Positions 8,079 to 64,000 of a stretch of 64,000 nucleotides of DNA are shown one piece after another. Location: assembly GCA_035532755.1 (NCBI GenBank), contig DATKQI010000279.1:2203-66202 (forward strand). Reading direction: 5' to 3'. Within the stretch, counting starts at the first letter, position 1. Each line of letters opens with the position of its first letter. Origin of the DNA: Acetobacteraceae bacterium. GTDB taxonomy: Bacteria > Pseudomonadota > Alphaproteobacteria > Acetobacterales > Acetobacteraceae. The translations under genes and the position numbers were made by a program. The notes under the pieces are model-generated. The model did no database searches and had not been told where the DNA came from. It saw only the letters and a list, made by a program, of their open reading frames with translations.

Positions 8079-9355
8079 GCCACCTGCCTCGTCCACCAGT
8101 TTTCCACGGCATGCTCCAGCGCGGCCCGCGCCGGCTCGTGCGTGATCGGGTCGAGCGCCTCGGCCAGGAAGGCCCGCACCAGGATCGCCCGCGCATCCGC
8201 AAGGGCGATGCCGCGGCTGCGCAGATAGAACAGCTGCTCAGGGTCAAGCTCCCCCACCGTCGCGCCGTGGCTGCATTTCACGTCGTCGGCGAAGATTTCA
8301 AGCTCCGGCTTGCAGTCGATCTCGGCATCCGGGGAAAGCAGCAGCGCCTGGTTCATCTGGTAGCCATCGGTCTTCTGCGCGATCCGCGCGACCTCGATCC
8401 GCCCCTGGAATACGCCGCGCGCGTGGTCGGTCAGCACCGATTTCACGGTCTGGCGGGAAGCGCAGCCGGGCGCGTCGTGGGACACGATCGTGGTGAAATC
8501 CGCATGCTGCGTCCCGCCAAGAAGCTGCGCGGCATTCAGATGCGCCGCCGCGCCCGTCCCGGTCAAGCGTGCGTGAATCTCCGTCCGCCCCAGCCGCGCC
8601 CCCAGGATCAGCGAAAATCCATCATACGTGCCGCCACCCGCCACATCGGCATAGATGGTCGCCAGATGGAATGCGTCATGGCTCTCGTCTTGCAGCCGGA
8701 TATGCGCCAGATGCGCATCCTTGCCCACGGTGATCTCGCTCACCGGGTTATGCAGGTACACGCCCTCGCCCGCCGCCACCTCGATCACCGTCAACCGCGC
8801 ACCCGCTTCCAGCCTCAGCACATGCCGCGGATGGAACGCGACCGGCCGTGCCGCTGTGCCGCTCGCAAGGCTCACCAGCAGCAGCGTGCCGCCGTCATGT
8901 CCCGCGGGCACGGTGATCACCGCGCCGTCCTGCGCCAGCATCGTGTTCAGCGCGGCCAGGCTCTCCCGCTCCGGCCGCGCGAGCCCGCCAAACGCGGGTT
9001 CGGCCGCGAAGCTCTCCGTCATCATTCCGGTCGGCATCACCGACAGATCGGCGCGAAATCGTCCATCGACCAGTACGATGCGCGGTGCGGCGATCGCCGG
9101 AAGCCGCGCCAGCAGGTCGGTGCCGCCGATCGCGGGTGTGAGCGGGCCATGAAAACCCTGCTCCGCCATCGGGCGCAGATTGGTGTAGCGCCATGCCTCC
9201 TGCCGCACCGAAGGCAGGCCCGCCGTACGGAAGGCGTCCGCAGCGGCCTCGCGCACCGCCGCATCGCCGGGCAGCCGGTCGCGAAGTCCCTCGAACCGCG
9301 CGAGAAACCCCGCAGCACCGGCAGCCAGCACGCTCGATGGAAGCACGGTGTTCAT
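8075..9355 (-). CDS. sufD: Fe-S cluster assembly protein SufD
   Basis: 426 aa, positioned between sufC and sufS, with a C-terminal beta-helix region conserved with SufB (CSHGATVGELD). Confidence 0.9.
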   Translation of the reverse strand: MNTVLPSSVLAAGAAGFLARFEGLRDRLPGDAAVREAAADAFRTAGLPSVRQEAWRYTNLRPMAEQGFHGPLTPAIGGTDLLARLPAIAAPRIVLVDGRFRADLSVMPTGMMTESFAAEPAFGGLARPERESLAALNTMLAQDGAVITVPAGHDGGTLLLVSLASGTAARPVAFHPRHVLRLEAGARLTVIEVAAGEGVYLHNPVSEITVGKDAHLAHIRLQDESHDAFHLATIYADVAGGGTYDGFSLILGARLGRTEIHARLTGTGAAAHLNAAQLLGGTQHADFTTIVSHDAPGCASRQTVKSVLTDHARGVFQGRIEVARIAQKTDGYQMNQALLLSPDAEIDCKPELEIFADDVKCSHGATVGELDPEQLFYLRSRGIALADARAILVRAFLAEALDPITHEPARAALEHAVENWWTRQVA

Positions 9356-10101
9356 GCCGCCTCGGCCGCAAGGTTCGCGTAGCCATGCGCTTCCAGCTCA
9401 TGCGCCAGTTCGGGCCCGCCGGAGCGCACGATCCGCCCGGCTGCGAGCACGTGCACCCGGTCCGGAACGATATGGTCCAGCAGCCGCTGGTAATGGGTGA
9501 TCACCAGCGCCGAGAAGGCGGGCCCGCGCAGCGCGTTCACCCCCTCGGCCACGATCTTCAGCGCATCGATATCAAGCCCGCTGTCGGTCTCGTCGAGAAT
9601 GGCGAGCTTCGGCCGCAGCACCGCCATCTGCAACACCTCGTTGCGCTTCTTCTCGCCGCCCGAGAAACCCACGTTCACGTTGCGCTTCAGCATTTCCTCG
9701 GGCATCGACAGCCGCTTCACCTCGGCGCGGGCGAGCTTGAGGAACTGGATCGCATCCAGCTCCGCCTCGCCGCGGCCGCGGCGGATCGCGTTCAGCGCCG
9801 TGCGCATGAAATTCGCATTCCCCACGCCCGGAAGTTCCACCGGATACTGGAAGGCGAGGAACAGCCCGGCGGCGGCGCGCGCCTCCGGCTCCATCGCCAG
9901 CAGGTCCTGTCCGTCGAATGTCGCAGTGCCGCTCGTCACCGTATAACCTTCGCGGCCGGAAAGCACGTAGGAGAGGGTGGATTTGCCCGCTCCGTTCGGC
10001 CCCATGATGGCATGCACCTCGCCGTCCGGCACCGTCAGGCTCACGCCGTCTAGGATGGCCTTGCCGTCGATTTCCGCGCTCAAACCCTCGATCTTCAACA
10101 T
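9352..10101 (-). CDS. sufC: Fe-S cluster assembly ATPase SufC
   Basis: Walker A GPNGAGKST, ABC signature FSGGEKKR, Walker B LAILDETDSGLD. Confidence 0.95.
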   Translation of the reverse strand: MLKIEGLSAEIDGKAILDGVSLTVPDGEVHAIMGPNGAGKSTLSYVLSGREGYTVTSGTATFDGQDLLAMEPEARAAAGLFLAFQYPVELPGVGNANFMRTALNAIRRGRGEAELDAIQFLKLARAEVKRLSMPEEMLKRNVNVGFSGGEKKRNEVLQMAVLRPKLAILDETDSGLDIDALKIVAEGVNALRGPAFSALVITHYQRLLDHIVPDRVHVLAAGRIVRSGGPELAHELEAHGYANLAAEAA

Positions 10102-10105
10102 GGCC

Positions 10106-11590
10106 TTACCCCACCGATCCTTCGAGGCTCACGGCGAGCAGCTTCTGCGCCTCGACTGCGAATTCCATCGGCAATTCCTTCAATACGTCCTTGCAGAACC
10201 CGTTGACGATCATCCCCACGGCGTCCTCTTCCGAAAGGCCGCGGCAGCGGCAATAGAAAAGCTGATCCTCGGCGATCTTGGAGGTGGTGGCCTCGTGCTC
10301 CACCTTCGCCGTCGGATTGCGGCTTTCGATGTAGGGCACCGTGTGCGCCCCGCACCGGTCGCCGATCAGCAGGCTGTCGCACTGCGTGAAGTTCCGCGCG
10401 CCGGAAGCTTTCGGCAGGATGCGCACCAGCCCGCGATAGGTGTTGTTCGAATGCCCGGCGCTGATCCCCTTCGAGATGATGGTGCTCGTGGTGTTGCGCC
10501 CGATGTGGATCATCTTCGTGCCGGTGTCGGCCTGCTGATGGTTGTTCGTCACCGCCACCGAATAGAACTCGCCCACGCTGCCCTCGCCCTGGAGGATGCA
10601 GGAGGGATATTTCCAGGTGATCGCCGATCCGGTCTCCACCTGCGTCCAGCTGATCCGGCTGCGCACGCCGCGGCACGCGCCGCGCTTGGTCACGAAATTA
10701 TAGATGCCGCCGCGGCCCTGCGCATCGCCCGGGTACCAGTTCTGCACGGTGCTGTATTTGATGCGCGCCTCGTCCAGCGCCACCAGTTCCACCACCGCCG
10801 CATGCAACTGGTTCTCGTCGCGCATCGGCGCGGTGCAGCCCTCCAGATACGAAACGCTGGCGCCCTCTTCGGCGATGATCAGCGTCCGCTCGAACTGGCC
10901 GGTGTTGCGCGCGTTGATGCGGAAATAGGTGGACAGCTCCATCGGGCACTTCACCCCGCGCGGGATGAAGGCGAAGCTGCCGTCGGTGAACACCGCCGAA
11001 TTCAGCGCCGCGAAATAGTTGTCGCCGGCCGGCACCACGGAGCCGAGGTATTTGCGCACCAGATCGGGATGCTCCTGCACCGCCTCGCTGATCGGGCAGA
11101 AGATCACGCCCGCCTTGGCCAGGGTCGCGCGAAAGGTGGTGGCGACCGAAACGCTGTCGAACACCGCGTCCACCGCCACGTTGCTACCATTGCTCCCCGC
11201 ACCCTCCACGCCGGCAAGGATCGCCCGCTCCTTCAGCGGAATGCCGAGCTTTTCATACGTGCGCAGCAACTCCGGATCGACCTCGTCGAGGCTTGCCGGC
11301 CCCGCCTTGCGCTTCGGCGCGGCGTAGTAGTGCAAATCCTGGTAGTCGATCGGCGGATGGTCCACCCGCGCCCAGTGCGGCTCGGTCATCGTCTGCCATG
11401 CCGCATAAGCCTTCAGCCGCCACGCCAGCAACCACTCCGGCTCGTTCTTGCGCGCCGAGATCAGGCGGATGATGCCCTCGTTCAGCCCCTTGGGCGCGAG
11501 ATCCATCTCCACATCGGTCACGAACCCGAACTTGTAGCCGGACCCGGTGACGGAGCGGACGGTATCGAGCGTTTCGGCAACAGCTGGCAT
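10106..11590 (-). CDS. sufB: Fe-S cluster assembly scaffold SufB
   Basis: Highly conserved SufB sequence ([26 protein letters not shown]-type region). I chose the start at MPAVAETLD (ATG 11590). The 65-codon upstream extension in the track overlaps the regulator gene and is Arg/Gly/Pro-rich. Confidence 0.93.
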
Positions 11591-11595
11591 GGTTT

Positions 11596-12078
11596 CTACT
11601 CGGACAGAGGAATGGATGCGGGCGCGGCAGACAGGTGGTGGGCCGCGTCGGCAGGCAGGCGGAACGCGCGCGGCACGGCTGCCTCCTGCATGTCGGCAAG
11701 CGTGATGGCCGCCAGCGCCGCGCGGATCGCCGCGTTCACCGGGTCCCACCGCCCGGCCATCGGGCACAGACCCTGGGATTCGCAATGTCCTTCGGCGCCG
11801 TCCACGCAGGCGGTGAGCGCGATGGGCCCGTCGATCGCGGCGATCACGTCGGAAACCGGAACGGCATGCAGCGGGCGCGTCAGCCGGTACCCGCCCCGCG
11901 CTCCGCGCGAGGAGGTAACCAGGCCACGGCAGGTCAGCGCTTTCAGCACCTTCGCCACCGTCGGTTCGGGAATGCCGATGGCCGCCGCAATGCCGGGCGA
12001 AGTCTGCACCCCATCGCCGCTCGACAGGCGCACAAGCACCACGACGGCATAATCGGTCAGCTTGGACAGCCTCAACAT
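11596..12078 (-). CDS. Rrf2 family transcriptional regulator (IscR/SufR-like), first gene of the suf operon
   Basis: Starts [18 protein letters not shown] with a winged HTH. A Cys cluster ([16 protein letters not shown]) is compatible with Fe-S sensing. Confidence 0.85.
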
Positions 12079-12145
12079 GGCGATATCCTCGGCACCTGGC
12101 CGGCGCGGGCGCCTCGCCCGCTCCTTCGGCATCCTGATGGAACTA

Positions 12146-58031: not shown

Positions 58032-59207
58032 TCACCTTATTTGCGCGAAACTAACCATATTGCCTGTTTTTTCATCGAATAAGGCGCCATCGCAGAACGC
58101 ATCGGCGCGCATCGGGATCGGCGCCGGGCTGGCCGGCAACATCCATTCAGACGGATGCCCACCCTCCACTTTCTGGTTCATCCACGGCACGCTCCAATCT
58201 TCCGCCCGGGCGGCGGCTTCGTGCAGATCCGGGCGATAGATCGCGGCCACCCGCGATCGTGTCGCGTCGTCTTCCGCCATCATCCCCCAGCGCGCCATCT
58301 GGCCGGCGAACCATCGCGCGTGCGATCGCCAGGGGAAAGTCGCGGCGTGGGCGGCGAACACCGAGCGCAGCGGATCATCCTGCGTTCCGGCCGATGGCAG
58401 GGAGGCGCGCACCATCTCCGCCGGCACGCTGAGATAATCCGGCCTTGCCAGCAGCCGGGCGAGCCCGTCCGCCTCGGCCGGGTCGTCGCACAGCCGTCCT
58501 GCGCGCAGCAGCCCGCGCAGCAGGGCATGCAGCCGCTCCGGCGCGGTCGCTGCCCAGTCCGCCCGCACGGCAAGACATTTCTCCGGGTGGTTGCGCCAGA
58601 TATTCGCGGTGCCGAGCACGATCCGGCCCGTTCCCGCTTGCGCCGCCATTCCGCCCCACGGCGCGCCGGCGCAGAACCCGTCGATGCGGCCGGCTTCCAC
58701 CGCCGCCACCATGGCGGCCGGCGGCAGCACGGTCAGCATCACGTCGCGCTCGGGGTCGATGCCGCTCGCGGCCAGCCAGTAGCGCAGCAGCAGATGATGG
58801 GTGGAATACCCATGCACCACCGCCAGTACCGGCCTGCGGCCCTGCCGCGCGATCGCCGCCCGCAGTCGCGCGCCCACCGCCAGCGGCGCGGGATTGCCGT
58901 CCAGCGCCGGATCGGCGAGGGCGGGGGCGAGCGCGATCGTGTTGCCGCCGAGGCTGATCCCGCCGGGCACCAGCAGCGACACCGCCGGGCCGCGCAGGCC
59001 CAGTGTCGCGGCGATGGCAAGCGGTGGCAGCAGCACCGCCCCTTCCAGCAGCCCCACCGCCAGCTTGTCGGCCAGGTTGGCCCAGGACGGCTCGACCGAC
59101 AGATCGACCGAAAGCCCCAGCGCATGGAACAGCCCCAGCTCCTGCGCCGCCACCAGCGGCGCGGCGTCGGTCAGCCGCAGCAGGCCGAGGCGGATCGTCT
59201 CCGTCAT
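58032..59207 (-). CDS. nasS: NrtA/CmpA-like nitrate-binding sensor protein without signal peptide (NasS)
   Basis: 391 aa with an NMT1/NrtA-like periplasmic-binding fold but a cytoplasmic-type N-terminus. It overlaps the nasT stop. Confidence 0.8.
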   Translation of the reverse strand: MTETIRLGLLRLTDAAPLVAAQELGLFHALGLSVDLSVEPSWANLADKLAVGLLEGAVLLPPLAIAATLGLRGPAVSLLVPGGISLGGNTIALAPALADPALDGNPAPLAVGARLRAAIARQGRRPVLAVVHGYSTHHLLLRYWLAASGIDPERDVMLTVLPPAAMVAAVEAGRIDGFCAGAPWGGMAAQAGTGRIVLGTANIWRNHPEKCLAVRADWAATAPERLHALLRGLLRAGRLCDDPAEADGLARLLARPDYLSVPAEMVRASLPSAGTQDDPLRSVFAAHAATFPWRSHARWFAGQMARWGMMAEDDATRSRVAAIYRPDLHEAAARAEDWSVPWMNQKVEGGHPSEWMLPASPAPIPMRADAFCDGALFDEKTGNMVSFAQIR

Positions 59208-59776
59208 GCCTTGTCCTCCTCGCCTGTCAGCATCTCCTGCGCGATCTCGGCGATGCGCCGGCCGCGCTGCATCGCCTGCCGGCGCAGCCAGTGATAGGCC
59301 TGCGGCTCGCTGATCCCGCGCTGCCGGATCAGTCTGGCTTTTGCCGCCTCGATCGCGGCGCGCTCGGCCAGCGCCTGTTCGGCCCGCTGCAACCCGCTTT
59401 CCACTTGCCGGAACCGCTCGAACATCGCCACCGCCGCCTGCACGATCGGCTTCACGTCGGGCAATGCCGCGCCCACCACGTTGTAGGAACTCACGCCCGC
59501 GGCGATCGCCTGCCGCATGAAGGCTGGATCGTCGGCATCGACGAACATCACGATTGGCCGCGGATTGTGCGCATAGGCGCGGCGGATGCCCTCAAGCCCG
59601 TCGCGGTCGGGCCGGGCCATATCGACGATCACGACATCGGGCTGCACACGCGCGGCGGCGGCGGCCAGCAGTTCTCCCGGCAATGGCCGCACCACCGCCA
59701 CGCGCTCCATAGCCGCCAGATCCGCGATCAGCGCCCGCGCGCGCGCCGGGTCGCCGTCAGCCAACAGAACCTTCAA
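59204..59776 (-). CDS. nasT: ANTAR-domain response regulator (NasT)
   Basis: Receiver-like N-terminus (KVLLADGD) and C-terminal ANTAR block (AKARLIRQRGISEPQAYHWLRRQAMQRGRRI). I chose the TTG start at 59776; the ATG alternative is at 59818. Confidence 0.8.
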   Translation of the reverse strand: MKVLLADGDPARARALIADLAAMERVAVVRPLPGELLAAAAARVQPDVVIVDMARPDRDGLEGIRRAYAHNPRPIVMFVDADDPAFMRQAIAAGVSSYNVVGAALPDVKPIVQAAVAMFERFRQVESGLQRAEQALAERAAIEAAKARLIRQRGISEPQAYHWLRRQAMQRGRRIAEIAQEMLTGEEDKA

Positions 59777-59833
59777 TCGCCGCCATCCTGCCCGGTCGCA
59801 ACAGGGCAGGCTGTGCAAGCCGCGCGCCAGCCG

Positions 59834-61303
59834 TTATCGGCCGGTCAGCCGGAACTCGATGCGGCGGTTTTTCGCATATGCCGCGGCCGTATCCCCCGGA
59901 TCGATCGGGTGGGTCGAGCCGAACGCGGCGGCGGCCAGCCGGTCGGCCGGAATTCCGTTCGCGATCAGCAGCTTCAGCACCGACAGCGCCCGCTCGGCCG
60001 AGAGATCCCAATTGGATGTGTAGCGCCCGCCCGTGATCGGCTGCTTGTCGGCATAGCCATCCACCCGCAGGATCCAGGGGATGTTCTTCGGGATGCCGGG
60101 CGCGATCTGCTTCAGCGCGGTGGCGATCTTGTCGATCTGCCGCGTGCCCGCCGCGGTCAGATGCGCGGAATTGACCGGGAACAGCACGTCGGACTGGAAC
60201 ACGAACCGGTCGCCCACGATGCGGATATCCTTCCGCCCGGCCAGCACCTGCCGCAGCCTGCCGAAGAAATTGCTGCGGTACTGCTGCAGTTCCTGCACCT
60301 TGCGCGCCAGCGCCTCGTTCAGCTTGCGCCCCAGGGCGGCAATCTGCACGTCCTTCTCGCTGCCCGCCGTCTTCGCCAGGTCGAGGGCCGCCGAAATCTG
60401 CGCGAGCTGGGCGCGCAGCTGGATCATCTGCTGGTTGAGCAGGTCGATCTCGGCCTGCGCGCTCGCCGTGAGCCCCTTCTGAACGGTCAGTTCCGTCCGC
60501 GTCGCCCCCGTCGCGCGCGTCTGTTTGGCCAGATCCGCCCGCGCTGTCGTCACCGCGCGCGTCTGCTTGGCCAGGTCGGTTTGCGCCTGCGCGGTCAACT
60601 CCTTCTGGGCAGTCAGTTCCGCCTGCGCCGCCACCGCCGCGCGCGTTTGTTTGGCGAGGTCCGCTTGCACCTGTGTCGTCAGTCCCTTCTGGGTGGCAAG
60701 GTCGGATTGCGTGCTGGCAACCAGCTTCTGCTGCGCCGCCAGATCGGCCCGGGTTTGCGCGAGCGTCCGGCGCGCCTGCCCAAGCTCGCTTACGATGGCG
60801 GCGGTCTGCTGGCCCGCGGCCTCGCTGTGCCGTGCCGCCCCGGCCAACTGGTTCTGGAGCGTGACGATGCGGGCGGCGGCGGATTTCGCCTGCAACTCGG
60901 CGTCCGCGAGCTTCGCCGCCAGCGTATCACGCTGCGCCTGCAACGCCTGGAGGCTGGCGCTGCTGGCGGCAGCATCCTTGTGCGTGGCGGCCAGTTGCCG
61001 GGCGAGCGCATCGCGGGCGGCATTGGACGTATCCAGTTTGCGCGTGAGCGTGGCCGCGCTCTGCTGCAGATCAGCGGCCTGCCCCTTCTCCAGCGCCAGC
61101 ATGTTGGACAGTTGGGCGATCTCGCGGTTCAATCGGTCCAGCGCCTTGTTCCGCCCCGACAGCGTGACGGACAGGAACGCCTGCGCCAGCACGAACACCA
61201 GCAGCACGAAGATGATCACCATCAGCAGGGTGGACAGCGCGTCCACATAGCCCGGCCAGGCGTTCAGCCCGTTCTCCCCGCCGCGGCGGATGCGCCCTGG
61301 CAT
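59834..61303 (-). CDS. MotB-like membrane protein: N-terminal TM with conserved Asp, roughly 300-aa coiled coil, C-terminal OmpA-type peptidoglycan-binding domain
   Basis: WPGYVDALSTLLMVIIFVLLVF is a MotB-type plug/TM. A long Q/A/L/T-rich heptad region follows. The C-terminus reads GYADKQP...SNWDLSAERA...NRRIEF. Confidence 0.75.
   Translation of the reverse strand: MPGRIRRGGENGLNAWPGYVDALSTLLMVIIFVLLVFVLAQAFLSVTLSGRNKALDRLNREIAQLSNMLALEKGQAADLQQSAATLTRKLDTSNAARDALARQLAATHKDAAASSASLQALQAQRDTLAAKLADAELQAKSAAARIVTLQNQLAGAARHSEAAGQQTAAIVSELGQARRTLAQTRADLAAQQKLVASTQSDLATQKGLTTQVQADLAKQTRAAVAAQAELTAQKELTAQAQTDLAKQTRAVTTARADLAKQTRATGATRTELTVQKGLTASAQAEIDLLNQQMIQLRAQLAQISAALDLAKTAGSEKDVQIAALGRKLNEALARKVQELQQYRSNFFGRLRQVLAGRKDIRIVGDRFVFQSDVLFPVNSAHLTAAGTRQIDKIATALKQIAPGIPKNIPWILRVDGYADKQPITGGRYTSNWDLSAERALSVLKLLIANGIPADRLAAAAFGSTHPIDPGDTAAAYAKNRRIEFRLTGR
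60470..60760 (-). repeat. degenerate in-frame tandem repeat, 42-nt (14-aa) period, within the coiled-coil region
   Basis: GCGCGCGT(C/T)TG(T/C)TTGGC(C/G)AG(A/G)TC, encoding DLAKQTRA, occurs at 60513, 60555 and 60639. CCTTCTG...AGTTC units occur at 60476, 60601 and 60684. Confidence 0.7.
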
Positions 61304-61306
61304 GTC

Positions 61307-62461
61307 CTATCGCGCCTCGTTCTCGGCCAGGGCGGCGATCGTGCGCGTCAGGATGCGCAGGTCGTTGCGCAGCTCCGCCGTGCTCTGCACCCGCCCCTGT
61401 TCGGATTCCGCGAGCAGCCGCTGCAGCGCCACCTCGATGTTGCGCAGATGGGCGTGCGCCACCTCGTCCGACCGTGGAACGCTGTGCTCGCCCAGGCGCT
61501 GCAGGGCGGGGCCGAGCACGCTCTGCGTCTCCGCGATCCGCAGCATCAGCTGCTGGTTGGCGCGCATCGTGTCGCTGAAGCTGCTCAGCTTCTCGGCCAG
61601 TTGCAGCAGCGTCTGGTTGGCGTGTCCGCGGCTCTCCTCGCCGCGCCCCAGGATCGTCTGCAACCCTTCCATGTTCTCGGCGGTCTGCTCCAGCAGCGCC
61701 TGCACATAGATCGGCACCGAGCCTTCGCCCTCGCTGCCCAGCACGCCCGAAGACAGCCGGGTGAGCCCGGCGAGCCATTCCTCCAGCTCGTTGAAGAACC
61801 GGTTCTGCGCCTGCCCGGCGGTGAGGTCGAGGAAGCCCAGCACCAGCGCGCCGGCAAGCCCGAACATCGAGGAGGAAAATGCGGTGGCCATGCCGGAGAG
61901 CGGACCTGTGAGCCCTGTCTTCAACTGCTCGAACATCGCGTTCACGTCGCCGGTGCCCATGGTCATCCCGTTGATCACGTCGGAGACCGAGGCCACCGTG
62001 CGCAGCAGCCCCCAGAACGTGCCGAGCAGGCCGAGGAAGATCATCAGCCCGGTCATGTAGCGGGAAAGCTCGCGGCTCTCGTCCAGCCGGCTCGCGATGC
62101 TGTCCAGCAAACCCCGCATCGCCTGGGCGGACAGCGTGAAGCGCGCCTGCGGGTCGCGCGATTTCTCGGCTCGCGAGGCCATCATCCGCGCCATCGGTGC
62201 GAGCAGCCTCGGCGGCGGGATCGTGGCGAGCGACGGGCGGGACCGCTGGAACGCCTCCACCCAGTTCACCTCCGGCGACAGCCGCAGCACCTGGCGCAGG
62301 TTCCAGGCGATGCCGAGGATCTCGACCAGGAAGATCAGGCTGTTCAGCGGCGGGTTGTTGGCGAAGAAGACGCGCAGCTTCGGCAGCAGCAGCAGGGACA
62401 CGAGGATGACCACGGCAAGGAAGGCCAGCATGCGCAGCAGATAGGCGGTGGGGCGGGTCAT
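61307..62461 (-). CDS. MotA/TolQ/ExbB-family proton channel protein with a roughly 150-aa C-terminal helical tail
   Basis: Two N-terminal TMs plus the conserved C-terminal pair (GLLGTFWGLL...MATAFSSSMFGLAGALVLGF), then a helical tail. Confidence 0.75.
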   Translation of the reverse strand: MTRPTAYLLRMLAFLAVVILVSLLLLPKLRVFFANNPPLNSLIFLVEILGIAWNLRQVLRLSPEVNWVEAFQRSRPSLATIPPPRLLAPMARMMASRAEKSRDPQARFTLSAQAMRGLLDSIASRLDESRELSRYMTGLMIFLGLLGTFWGLLRTVASVSDVINGMTMGTGDVNAMFEQLKTGLTGPLSGMATAFSSSMFGLAGALVLGFLDLTAGQAQNRFFNELEEWLAGLTRLSSGVLGSEGEGSVPIYVQALLEQTAENMEGLQTILGRGEESRGHANQTLLQLAEKLSSFSDTMRANQQLMLRIAETQSVLGPALQRLGEHSVPRSDEVAHAHLRNIEVALQRLLAESEQGRVQSTAELRNDLRILTRTIAALAENEAR

Positions 62462-63225
62462 TTTGCCGGTCCGGAACGGGTTTGCGATGCGGCCGAGGAA
62501 ACGGGCAGGGCCGTGATCTCCACGCGGTCGGGCGATCCGTCGCCGGTGTTGCTGCCGAGCGCGCGCAGAATGATGTGCGTGTCGGCAACGCCGGATTTCA
62601 GCAGCACCCGCCTTACTGCCAGCGCCCGGGACAGCGACAGCCGCCGGGCCGTGGACGGGTTGCTCGCCTCTCCCGCGGCGAAGGCGAGCACGGTGAAGCG
62701 GCTGGTGGCAGGGCTGGCCGCCTGCGCGAACTGTGCGAGCGTGGCCGTCTCCGCGCCGCTCAGCGCCGGGTCCTGGGCCGCGAACGGCAGGGTCAGCTTC
62801 AGCGCACTCGCCGGTGGCGCTGGGGGTCGCGGAGCCTGCGGCGGAGGCATTTTGGCCGGGGTCGGCACAGGTGGTGCCGCTGGCGGCGCCGGCGTCGCCG
62901 TGGCGATCGTTGCCGGTTCGGCCGGGGCTGCGGCGGCTTGTTTCGGTGGGGAAAGCGGCGGGGCGAGCTGCGGCGGCGTGGGCGGCGGTGGCGGCGCGCC
63001 GGGCAGGGCTGCCAGCGCCGGCAGGGCGGGTCTGGGCGGAACGGCCGGGCGCGGGGCCGGATGCGGTCGCGGTGCGGGCCTGGGCGGTGGCGGCTTGGGC
63101 AGCACGGCTCCGGGCAGTGCGTTCAGCGCATTCAGATCGACCGTAACCTGCGCCCGCGCGGGCGCGGCCACCAGTACAGCGGCAAGAATCGGCAAAACCG
63201 GCAACAGGCAGAACGTTTGGCGCAT
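62458..63225 (-). CDS. secreted protein with Pro-rich linker and OmpA-like C-terminal domain
   Basis: Signal peptide MRQTFCLLPVLPILAAVLVAAPARA, a 100-aa or so P/A-rich tract, then FTVLAFAAGE...RRLSLSRALAVRRVLL. Confidence 0.65.
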   Translation of the reverse strand: MRQTFCLLPVLPILAAVLVAAPARAQVTVDLNALNALPGAVLPKPPPPRPAPRPHPAPRPAVPPRPALPALAALPGAPPPPPTPPQLAPPLSPPKQAAAAPAEPATIATATPAPPAAPPVPTPAKMPPPQAPRPPAPPASALKLTLPFAAQDPALSGAETATLAQFAQAASPATSRFTVLAFAAGEASNPSTARRLSLSRALAVRRVLLKSGVADTHIILRALGSNTGDGSPDRVEITALPVSSAASQTRSGPAK

Positions 63226-63239
63226 CGCGCAGGCACCCT

Positions 63240-63260
63240 AGCGAAGCCCCCCGCTTCGCT
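63240..63260 (-). terminator. hairpin AGCGAAGC-CCCCC-GCTTCGCT between suhB and the stator-like operon; no U-tract
   Basis: 8-bp perfect stem read directly. Its function as a terminator is uncertain. Confidence 0.25.
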
Positions 63261-63289
63261 CAATCAATGCTCTGCGATGGACCCGCCAC

Positions 63290-64000
63290 CTACTCGGGCG
63301 TGTGTGCCATCCGTGCATCCGCGGCCGCGATGCCCTCGGCCACCGCCTCGCGCAGCTTCGCGTGCAGGTGCGGGTTCGCCGCCACCACATTCCCTCCGGT
63401 CTCGTCGTGCCCGGCCGGGTCGGTGGCATAGCCGCCGGCCTCGCGCACCAGCAACAACCCCGCCGCGACATCCCAGTGCTTCAGCCCCAGCTCCCAGAAC
63501 CCGTCATATCGCCCGGCCGCGACCCAGGCGAGATCGAGTGCCGCGGCGCCGAGACGGCGGATGCCGGCCACTTGCGGCATCAACCCGCCCAGCGTCCGCG
63601 CGAAGGCGAGCCGGCGCGGGGCGGATACGGCGGCGAAGGGGATGCCGGTCGCGAGCATCGCATCCTTCATCTCACGCCGGGCGGATACACGCAGCCGCTT
63701 CTCGTTGACGAAGGCCCCGCCGCCCTTTTCCGCCCAGAACATCTCGTCGGCCACCGGGGCATAGATCAGCCCCGCGGCCAGCTCGCTTGCCCCGTTCGGC
63801 AGCCGCCGCTCCAGCCCGATGCTGATCGCCCAATGCGGAATGCCGTGCAGGAAATTGGAGGTGCCGTCCAGCGGATCGACCACCCAGCGCCAGCTCCAGT
63901 TCTCCGAGCCGGAGGCGCCGGATTCCTCCATCAGGAAGGCATAGCCGGGACGTGCCTTGCCCAGCTCCTCCTTCAGCGTCGCCTCGGACCGCAGATCGGC
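63290..64000 (-). CDS. suhB: inositol monophosphatase family protein (SuhB-like), 5' end beyond the right edge
   Basis: Motifs FLMEESG and WVVDPLDGTSNFLHG. The reading frame stays open to position 64000 (ADLRSEATLKEELGKARPGYAFLMEE). Confidence 0.85.
   Translation of the reverse strand, partial: ADLRSEATLKEELGKARPGYAFLMEESGASGSENWSWRWVVDPLDGTSNFLHGIPHWAISIGLERRLPNGASELAAGLIYAPVADEMFWAEKGGGAFVNEKRLRVSARREMKDAMLATGIPFAAVSAPRRLAFARTLGGLMPQVAGIRRLGAAALDLAWVAAGRYDGFWELGLKHWDVAAGLLLVREAGGYATDPAGHDETGGNVVAANPHLHAKLREAVAEGIAAADARMAHTPE

Follow-up and report, generated by a model that had tools for sequence, protein, structure and literature searches.

The window analysed here, a stretch of 64,000 nucleotides (nt) of contig DATKQI010000279.1 of an Acetobacteraceae bacterium, carries at 59834-63225 a compact operon of three minus-strand genes, which we name A, B and C. 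Gene A encodes a secreted protein, and genes B and C encode the channel-type and the wall-binding subunit of a stator-like module. Open reading frame (ORF) calling bore out the first-pass annotation of this DNA in that the three genes overlap or abut: the stop of A and the start of B overlap by 4 nt and a gap of 3 nt lies between B and C, which indicates that A, B and C are translationally coupled. The G+C content of the region (68-73%) is similar to that of the remaining window. The features of the three genes are as follows.

62458-63225 (-): gene A, a secreted, putatively accessory protein of 255 amino acids (aa), from the ORF call
63151-63225 (-): signal peptide of A
62800-63111 (-): Pro/Ala-rich spacer of A, residues 39-142 (42% Pro, 25% Ala)
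62545-62784 (-): OmpA-like domain of A (Pfam OmpA)
61307-62461 (-): gene B, an ExbB/TolQ/ZorA-fold channel (A-type) subunit of 384 aa, from the ORF call
61826-62071 (-): last two transmembrane (TM) helices of B, residues 131-212 (FLGLLGTFWGL ... PLSGMATAFSSSMFGLAG)
61310-61819 (-): helical tail of B, residues 215-384, about 170 aa, predicted to be cytoplasmic
59834-61303 (-): gene C, a MotB-type (B-type) subunit of 489 aa, from the ORF call
61172-61258 (-): WPGYVDAL motif and single TM helix of C, residues 16-44
60386-61171 (-): heptad coiled-coil stalk of C, residues 45-306
60475-60711 (-): degenerate in-frame tandem repeats inside the stalk of C (Tandem Repeats Finder)
59837-60343 (-): neck (YRSNFFGRL...GDRF) and OmpA/MotB-type peptidoglycan-binding domain of C, residues 321-489

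Protein B had been assigned to the MotA/TolQ/ExbB family. Its score against the Pfam profile MotA_ExbB (PF01618) is 20.7 bits (E=3.6e-4), under the gathering score of 22.9; the gene was not picked up in a whole-genome PF01618 scan, and no MotA_N domain was found in B by Pfam. When PDB chains were searched with a sequence profile of B, only coiled-coil noise and ZorA at E=0.17 came back, so that a fold search was needed. With an AlphaFold2 model of B (predicted local distance difference test score 88, built from an input of 96 homologues), all 50 matches listed by Foldseek in the PDB were ExbB, ZorA or TolQ chains with probabilities of 0.82-1.00, the top ones being ExbB 5sv1, ZorA 8vvn_D and TolQ at a probability of about 1.0. 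The best superposition was obtained with the Shewanella type I ZorA (8vvn_D, TM-score 0.58, 21% identity), and among the PADLOC profiles B matched ZorA1 (E=7.6e-13). The modelled fold hence points to B being a divergent member of the MotA/TolQ/ExbB superfamily that falls below the Pfam cut-off, so the earlier assignment stands by fold and TM pair but not by Pfam score.

The two hydrophobic segments of B lie at residues 135-153 and 193-211, and an alignment of 96 sequences showed G144, G147, T148, G151, S198 and G201 in these last two TM helices to be invariant. Helices in the model span residues 173-239, 251-325 and 332-383. The tail behind the last TM helix, given before as about 150 aa, measures about 170 aa and would be cytoplasmic by analogy to the topology of ExbB and ZorA. 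Its end carries the conserved motif R..L+.L(A/T)RTIA, which is kept wherever a tail exists, and the distance from TM3 to the tail end is narrow among B homologues, mostly 220-240 residues; a test across the homologues found no heptad phasing of the tail length.

Protein C matched the NCBIfam equivalog NF006543 (PRK09039.1-2) with 453.3 bits (E=8.6e-136) against a cut-off of 305, and among the PADLOC profiles it matched ZorB3 (E=1.3e-27). Its TM helix occupies residues 26-44 next to Asp21 (codon 61241-61243), and all of 113 homologues share W16, V20 and D21 as part of a motif W-P-G-[FY]-V-D. At the other end, the OmpA domain (Pfam, 59.1 bits, residues 374-480) found its best PDB sequence matches in PomB (3wpw) and MotB (3cyp), and the neck before it keeps a spacing of 22 residues between YRS and GDRF in 106 of 106 proteins. 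Neither a MotB_plug nor an ExbD/TolR domain was found in C by Pfam. The earlier description of C as a MotB-like protein with a conserved Asp, a long coiled coil and an OmpA-type domain was thereby confirmed.

Between these two ends, the coiled coil of C runs unbroken over about 265 residues, corresponding to ~39 nm if fully helical, and a single heptad frame is the best one in every 35-residue segment from residue ~41 to residue ~306. The AlphaFold2 monomer model of C has helices at 19-192, 203-313 and 318-354 with low-confidence breaks at 193-202 and 314-317, and to the break at 193-202 corresponds no shift of the heptad frame. Stalk length, taken in 106 C proteins as the number of residues separating the TM Asp from the invariant YRSxFF neck motif, ranged over 136-472 residues with a median value of 254; it is 321 in the protein of the window. 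The stalk, which had been described as exceptionally long, is so in comparison with the linkers of MotB and TolR, but not within its own family.

The first-pass annotation had further proposed the stalk to be a ruler or a force-transmitting element. The 3.5-fold variation in stalk length between orthologues makes a fixed-distance ruler unlikely. The phase of the length is far more constrained: 79 of the 106 lengths, including that of the window protein, equal 6 mod 7, a raw count that is inflated by related sequences and that a hand count reduces to ~28 among ~52 distinct lengths. The remaining lengths fall into the classes 2, 3 or 0 mod 7, of which 2 and 3 are offsets of +3 and +4 residues, and none falls into 1, 4 or 5. 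No comparable quantisation was found for the other moduli from 3 to 11. Such whole-heptad steps favour a register-locked, rigid and torsionally continuous rod over a ruler, suggesting that selection preserves how the Asp-bearing helices are rotated relative to the wall-binding dimer (their angular register) but not how far apart the two lie. The phasing also fits the other proposal, an element that transmits force or torque. The tandem repeats of the stalk are in frame, come in units of 42 nt (14 aa, 2.1 copies) and 126 nt (42 aa, 1.9 copies) and indicate a route by which heptad-preserving growth of the stalk would arise. In some Acetobacteraceae, the longest C-type open frames reach 700-995 aa (locus L076 of Falsiroseomonas stagni, 9140-12127; L075, 3690-5798; L070, 1089-3377); these are either real longer stalks or over-extended starts in high-GC DNA, and they were left out of the stalk-length statistics.

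We examined the distribution of B and C in a set of 201 genomes that samples the alphaproteobacterial families evenly, scoring B at E<1e-30 and C by NF006543 at E<=1e-30. B was found in 131 of these genomes, nearly always in a single copy, and C-type genes in 133. C was present in all 131 carriers of B, B never occurred alone, and the two genomes with C alone are both incomplete metagenome-assembled genomes (Fisher p=6e-52). Three reduced genomes (0.8-1.4 Mb) retain both B and C, although the two genes are unlinked there. B has more than 8000 matching protein clusters, and a profile search for related loci in genome contigs, of which the best 80 loci were taken, returned mostly Acetobacteraceae and Rhodospirillales. 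In a phylum-wide search, strong B matches were almost confined to Alphaproteobacteria, with few exceptions. Moreover, many families share the gene order efp-suhB-A-B-C (suhB in 45 and efp in 43 of 65 long loci), while no conserved gene was found downstream of C in the 65 long loci. The proposed checks of phylogenetic distribution and gene neighbourhood therefore both returned a conserved unit: B-C is a near-core, vertically conserved alphaproteobacterial locus present in about 65% of the sampled genomes. As had been stated, the annotations of its homologues are generic, reading 'flagellar motor protein MotA', 'ExbB/TolQ' or, under PRK09039, 'peptidoglycan-binding protein'.

Several further matches were recorded in these searches. 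Outside the class, strong B matches (E 1e-45 to 1e-82) included the Pseudomonadota genomes G297, G416, G446, G428 (locus L129), G386 and G480, and in G428 C adjoins B; these matches could reflect transfer or deeper ancestry. Weak B matches (E ~1e-6 to 1e-9) correspond to open frames of ~640-940 aa, the size expected for ZorA. In some large alphaproteobacterial genomes, between one and three additional C-type genes, PRK09039-like, are found outside the B-C locus (G006:C1:4353091-4353927 and 4477817-4478653, G155:C3:1450390 and 2980024, G191:C3:1435679), and an extra B was found in none; most of these C-type genes score just under the NF006543 cut-off, G155:C3:2980024 lying above it, and they may be orphan wall-binding coiled-coil paralogues.

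Protein A agreed with its first description as a secreted protein with a Pro/Ala-rich spacer and an OmpA-like domain. It has a single N-terminal hydrophobic segment ending in ARA|Q, and its OmpA match is just above the Pfam cut-off (30.6 against 27.2 bits) but recurs in all of 53 aligned A homologues, in which a motif RRLSLSRALAV is common and a short motif V.VDL..L is conserved at the mature N-terminus. Two wall tethers in one operon had been taken to suggest an envelope-spanning machine. However, only 82 of 109 loci have an A-type ORF immediately before B, and all small genomes lack one. The core of the machine therefore does not include A, which is an accessory; that suggestion was consequently not upheld, and we propose A to be a frequent but dispensable wall-binding accessory in the periplasm.

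The module is not part of the flagellar, Tol or Ton systems. None of their genes is on this contig, in agreement with what had been noted, and the same genome carries tolQR on contig C6, motB-motA on C239 and fliG on C362. On C239 (locus L002), the flagellar motB (frame 30-1088, with MotB_plug) stands directly ahead of motA (with MotA_N), and a family 4 glycosyltransferase gene follows motA; the tol genes form a separate ruvB-ybgC-tolQ-tolR cluster. In the 201 genomes, B occurs with FliG in 93 and without it in 38, FliG occurs without B in 46 and both are missing in 24, so that B is distributed independently of flagella (odds ratio 1.28, p=0.52). In addition, NF006543 had no match at E<=1e-30 in 14 control genomes, which included the flagellated Caulobacter vibrioides and E. 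coli.

Compared with known motors, B-C shares with MotA/MotB and PomA/PomB the wall-binding domain of C, the Asp-containing TM motif and the operon logic, but B lacks MotA_N or a torque-generating cytoplasmic domain and C lacks the plug. Moreover, the linker of C is a predicted rigid heptad rod of 136-472 residues, whereas that of MotB is short and flexible. With ExbB-ExbD and TolQ-TolR (PDB 5sv0, 6tyi, 8odt, 9ddm) the module shares the fold of B and a partner with a single TM helix and a conserved Asp; unlike C, however, ExbD and TolR have neither an OmpA-type domain nor a coiled coil and act through TonB or TolA, and no TonB-, TolA-, TolB- or Pal-like gene is linked to A-B-C. ZorA/ZorB (PDB 8vvn, 8qyd) give the best structure match for B and the best profile matches for both B and C, ZorA likewise has a helical tail behind its last TM helix, and ZorB likewise combines a TM Asp with a peptidoglycan-binding domain. 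The cryo-electron microscopy study of ZorAB (Hu et al. 2024, PMC11946911) describes a wall-anchored ZorA5B2 proton motor that signals via its cytoplasmic tail, a pentameric coiled coil of ~70 nm in contrast to the about 170 aa of the B tail. In the present module, the long coiled coil is instead on the periplasmic B-type subunit, C.

Our literature searches found no mechanistic study of the B-C family. A preprint on the phylogeny of GIT/FIT stators mentions diverse non-flagellar stators in general terms only, a review of the Brucella flagellum held nothing relevant, and a paper on Rgs and Tol-Pal in S. meliloti proved unrelated, with MotA, ExbB and OmpA never mentioned. The earlier statement that the family lacks functional characterization nevertheless has to be corrected, since partial work exists on the only 'motA/motB' homologues (348 and 321 aa) of Komagataeibacter hansenii (Jacek et al. 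2019, PMC6570709), a non-flagellated acetic acid bacterium that likewise belongs to the Acetobacteraceae. Over-expression of these genes led to elongated cells, wider colony spreading and looser cellulose, and MotA-GFP and MotB-GFP (green fluorescent protein fusions) were polar, or bipolar in long cells (PMC6570709). Disruption mutants were viable and formed denser cellulose, as summarised in a second paper (PMC7347698). The first study treated the genes as motility genes and focused on cellulose structure rather than on mechanism (PMC6570709).

We relate these genes to the family through Komagataeibacter xylinus, in which the B profile found a locus (L097) with the order suhB-A-B-C, whose B (348 aa) and C (316 aa) are 56% and 52% identical to those of the window and whose stalk is about 170 residues shorter than that of the window. 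The same order and the lengths of 348 and 316 aa, set against 348 and 321 aa, are a match that probably places the K. hansenii 'motA/motB' in the B-C family, an assignment drawn from the K. xylinus locus and from protein lengths.

Taken together, B-C may be a housekeeping, peptidoglycan-anchored, ion-driven 5:2 motor of the MotA5B2/ExbB5D2/ZorA5B2 type, with C fixed to the wall, the B ring and its tail as the output and a role in the envelope or in cell length; we give this reading about as much credence as doubt. A dimer of C would be encircled by five B subunits, and protonation and deprotonation of Asp21, facing Thr148 and Ser198 of B, would rotate the B ring relative to C. C would be immobilized by the rigid, parallel, register-locked coiled-coil rod, at whose end would sit a peptidoglycan-binding dimer of the MotB/PomB type. 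The part that moves and gives the output would be the B ring with its conserved tail of ~170 residues, which may act on a cytoplasmic partner like a short, constitutive version of the ZorA tail, and A would be a frequent, dispensable wall-binding accessory. The role, for which K. hansenii is the only source, might be control of the envelope or of cell length (division or elongation) at the poles, and would be neither swimming nor phage defence.

Several points weigh against this motor reading. Stalks of 20-70 nm far exceed the distance from the inner membrane to the wall, so a simple upright anchor fails and the rod must tilt, fold or run along the wall. The score of B remains below the Pfam gathering threshold, and both the 5:2 stoichiometry and the rotation are assumed by analogy with the known motors. 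Some B orthologues of 258-330 aa lack most of the tail, which weakens the tail as a universal output; no cytoplasmic partner of the tail is known, and nothing conserved follows C. The phenotypes seen in K. hansenii are indirect and were obtained by over-expression, and a C-terminal GFP on a periplasmic domain is a doubtful reporter for polar localization. Ion flow, the tail as output and the cellular role are inferred as well.

Some of the same evidence would fit a Tol-like periplasmic force transducer, the alternative that survives best. B would here be held in the membrane, and turning or pulling of the rod of C, with A, would remodel the wall and outer membrane or tether them in growth or constriction, leaving to the tail regulation or localization only. 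A long, rigid, register-locked rod suits the transfer of torque or tension across the periplasm, as carried out by TolA and GldM; in 75% of loci, A adds another wall-binding protein, whose Pro-rich spacer is TonB/TolA-like; and the nearly tail-less B orthologues, as well as the cell-length phenotype of K. hansenii, which resembles Tol-type division effects, point in the same direction. However, the C-terminus of C is a MotB/PomB-type anchor domain, and such domains fix the B-type subunit in known systems; the tail end of B is conserved where a tail is present; Tol-Pal is encoded separately in this genome; and A is dispensable in a quarter of loci. We consider a Tol-like transducer unlikely but deserving of serious weight.

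The wide range of stalk lengths, the polar GFP fusions and the divergence of B from MotA_ExbB could also be accommodated by a B-C pair devoid of motor activity that acts as a passive tether, either a strut from the inner membrane to the wall or a polar landmark. This is improbable, because the channel-lining residues and the Asp are invariant throughout the class, reduced genomes included, B and C co-occur strictly, and a pentamer-type channel subunit would be superfluous for a strut.

The similarity to ZorA and ZorB, which is the best by both profile and structure and extends to a faint match of B to antiphage_ZorA_2 (NCBIfam, 18.6 bits), raises a further alternative, a Zorya-type anti-phage module that senses a breach of the envelope as ZorAB does. 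That score, however, is far under the cut-off of 100, and none of the Zorya effectors (ZorC/ZorD of type I, ZorE of type II, ZorF/ZorG of type III) is linked to the genes, whose neighbours are suhB, efp and the nitrate-assimilation genes nasT/nasS; the B tail is also far from the size of the ZorA tail. Zorya is a mobile defence island, whereas A-B-C is a vertically inherited housekeeping locus: being kept as a single copy at the same locus by 65% of alphaproteobacterial genomes, down to those of 0.8-1.4 Mb, is the opposite of the behaviour of a defence island, which makes an anti-phage role very improbable. Finally, the NCBI name 'flagellar motor protein MotA' and the fliG, motA and motB of this flagellated genome might suggest an auxiliary flagellar stator, but this reading is hardly tenable in view of the missing MotA_N and MotB_plug domains, which the genuine MotA and MotB of the same genome have, the 38 of 131 carriers without FliG and the 46 FliG-positive genomes without B, the absence of NF006543 matches from the flagellated controls, and the lack of flagella in Komagataeibacter (PMC6570709).

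Upstream of the operon and on the same strand lies the conserved neighbour, which is outside the machine.

63290-64000 (-): suhB-like inositol monophosphatase family gene, its ORF exceeding the window end

The spacer between suhB and A is 64 nt long and contains, at 63241-63260 (-), a perfect 8-bp GC-rich hairpin (AGCGAAGC - GGGGG - GCTTCGCT), which lies 15 nt ahead of the ATG of A and is followed by no T-run. This hairpin could be a weak terminator, an attenuator or an RNA-stability element parting suhB from the operon. Downstream of C follows the nitrate-sensing pair nasT-nasS, with 15 nt (59819-59833) between the stop of C and the first possible (TTG) start of nasT, which encodes an ANTAR response regulator. 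A promoter and terminator scan of 59000-64000 found nothing, and together with the 15-nt gap the lack of a terminator-like site makes read-through from C into nasT-nasS possible. The true start of nasT may be further downstream, and the adjacency of C and nasT is not kept in other loci.

Returning to the motor reading, the non-flagellar, non-Tol and non-Ton nature of this stator-like module held throughout our analysis, and the family is a distinct, barely studied variant of the 5:2 motors of which the window copy is an ordinary member. Ion-driven 5:2 motors are few, and Mot, Exb, Tol, GldLM and Zorya have each opened a biology of their own. B-C is kept in ~65% of the sampled alphaproteobacterial genomes, yet it is mis-annotated as flagellar MotA or as a generic peptidoglycan-binding protein. 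Its heptad-locked stalk of variable length provides a testable design rule, in which insertions of 7 residues are set against insertions of 3-4 residues, and its similarity to ZorAB poses the question of how a defence sensor is related to a housekeeping motor. As a tentative extension that is possible though we would not yet lean towards it, Mot, Tol and Exb would be joined in diderm bacteria by B-C as a fourth class of housekeeping 5:2 motors, one that is specific to most Alphaproteobacteria. Working constitutively, it would stand to the Zorya sensor as its sister or as its source. The heptad-locked rod, bound to the wall, would then fix the angular register between wall anchor and Asp-bearing helices while proton flow turns the B ring, and the short tail bundle would act on a polar or divisome-associated cytoplasmic target, which may couple the state of the sacculus to elongation or division.

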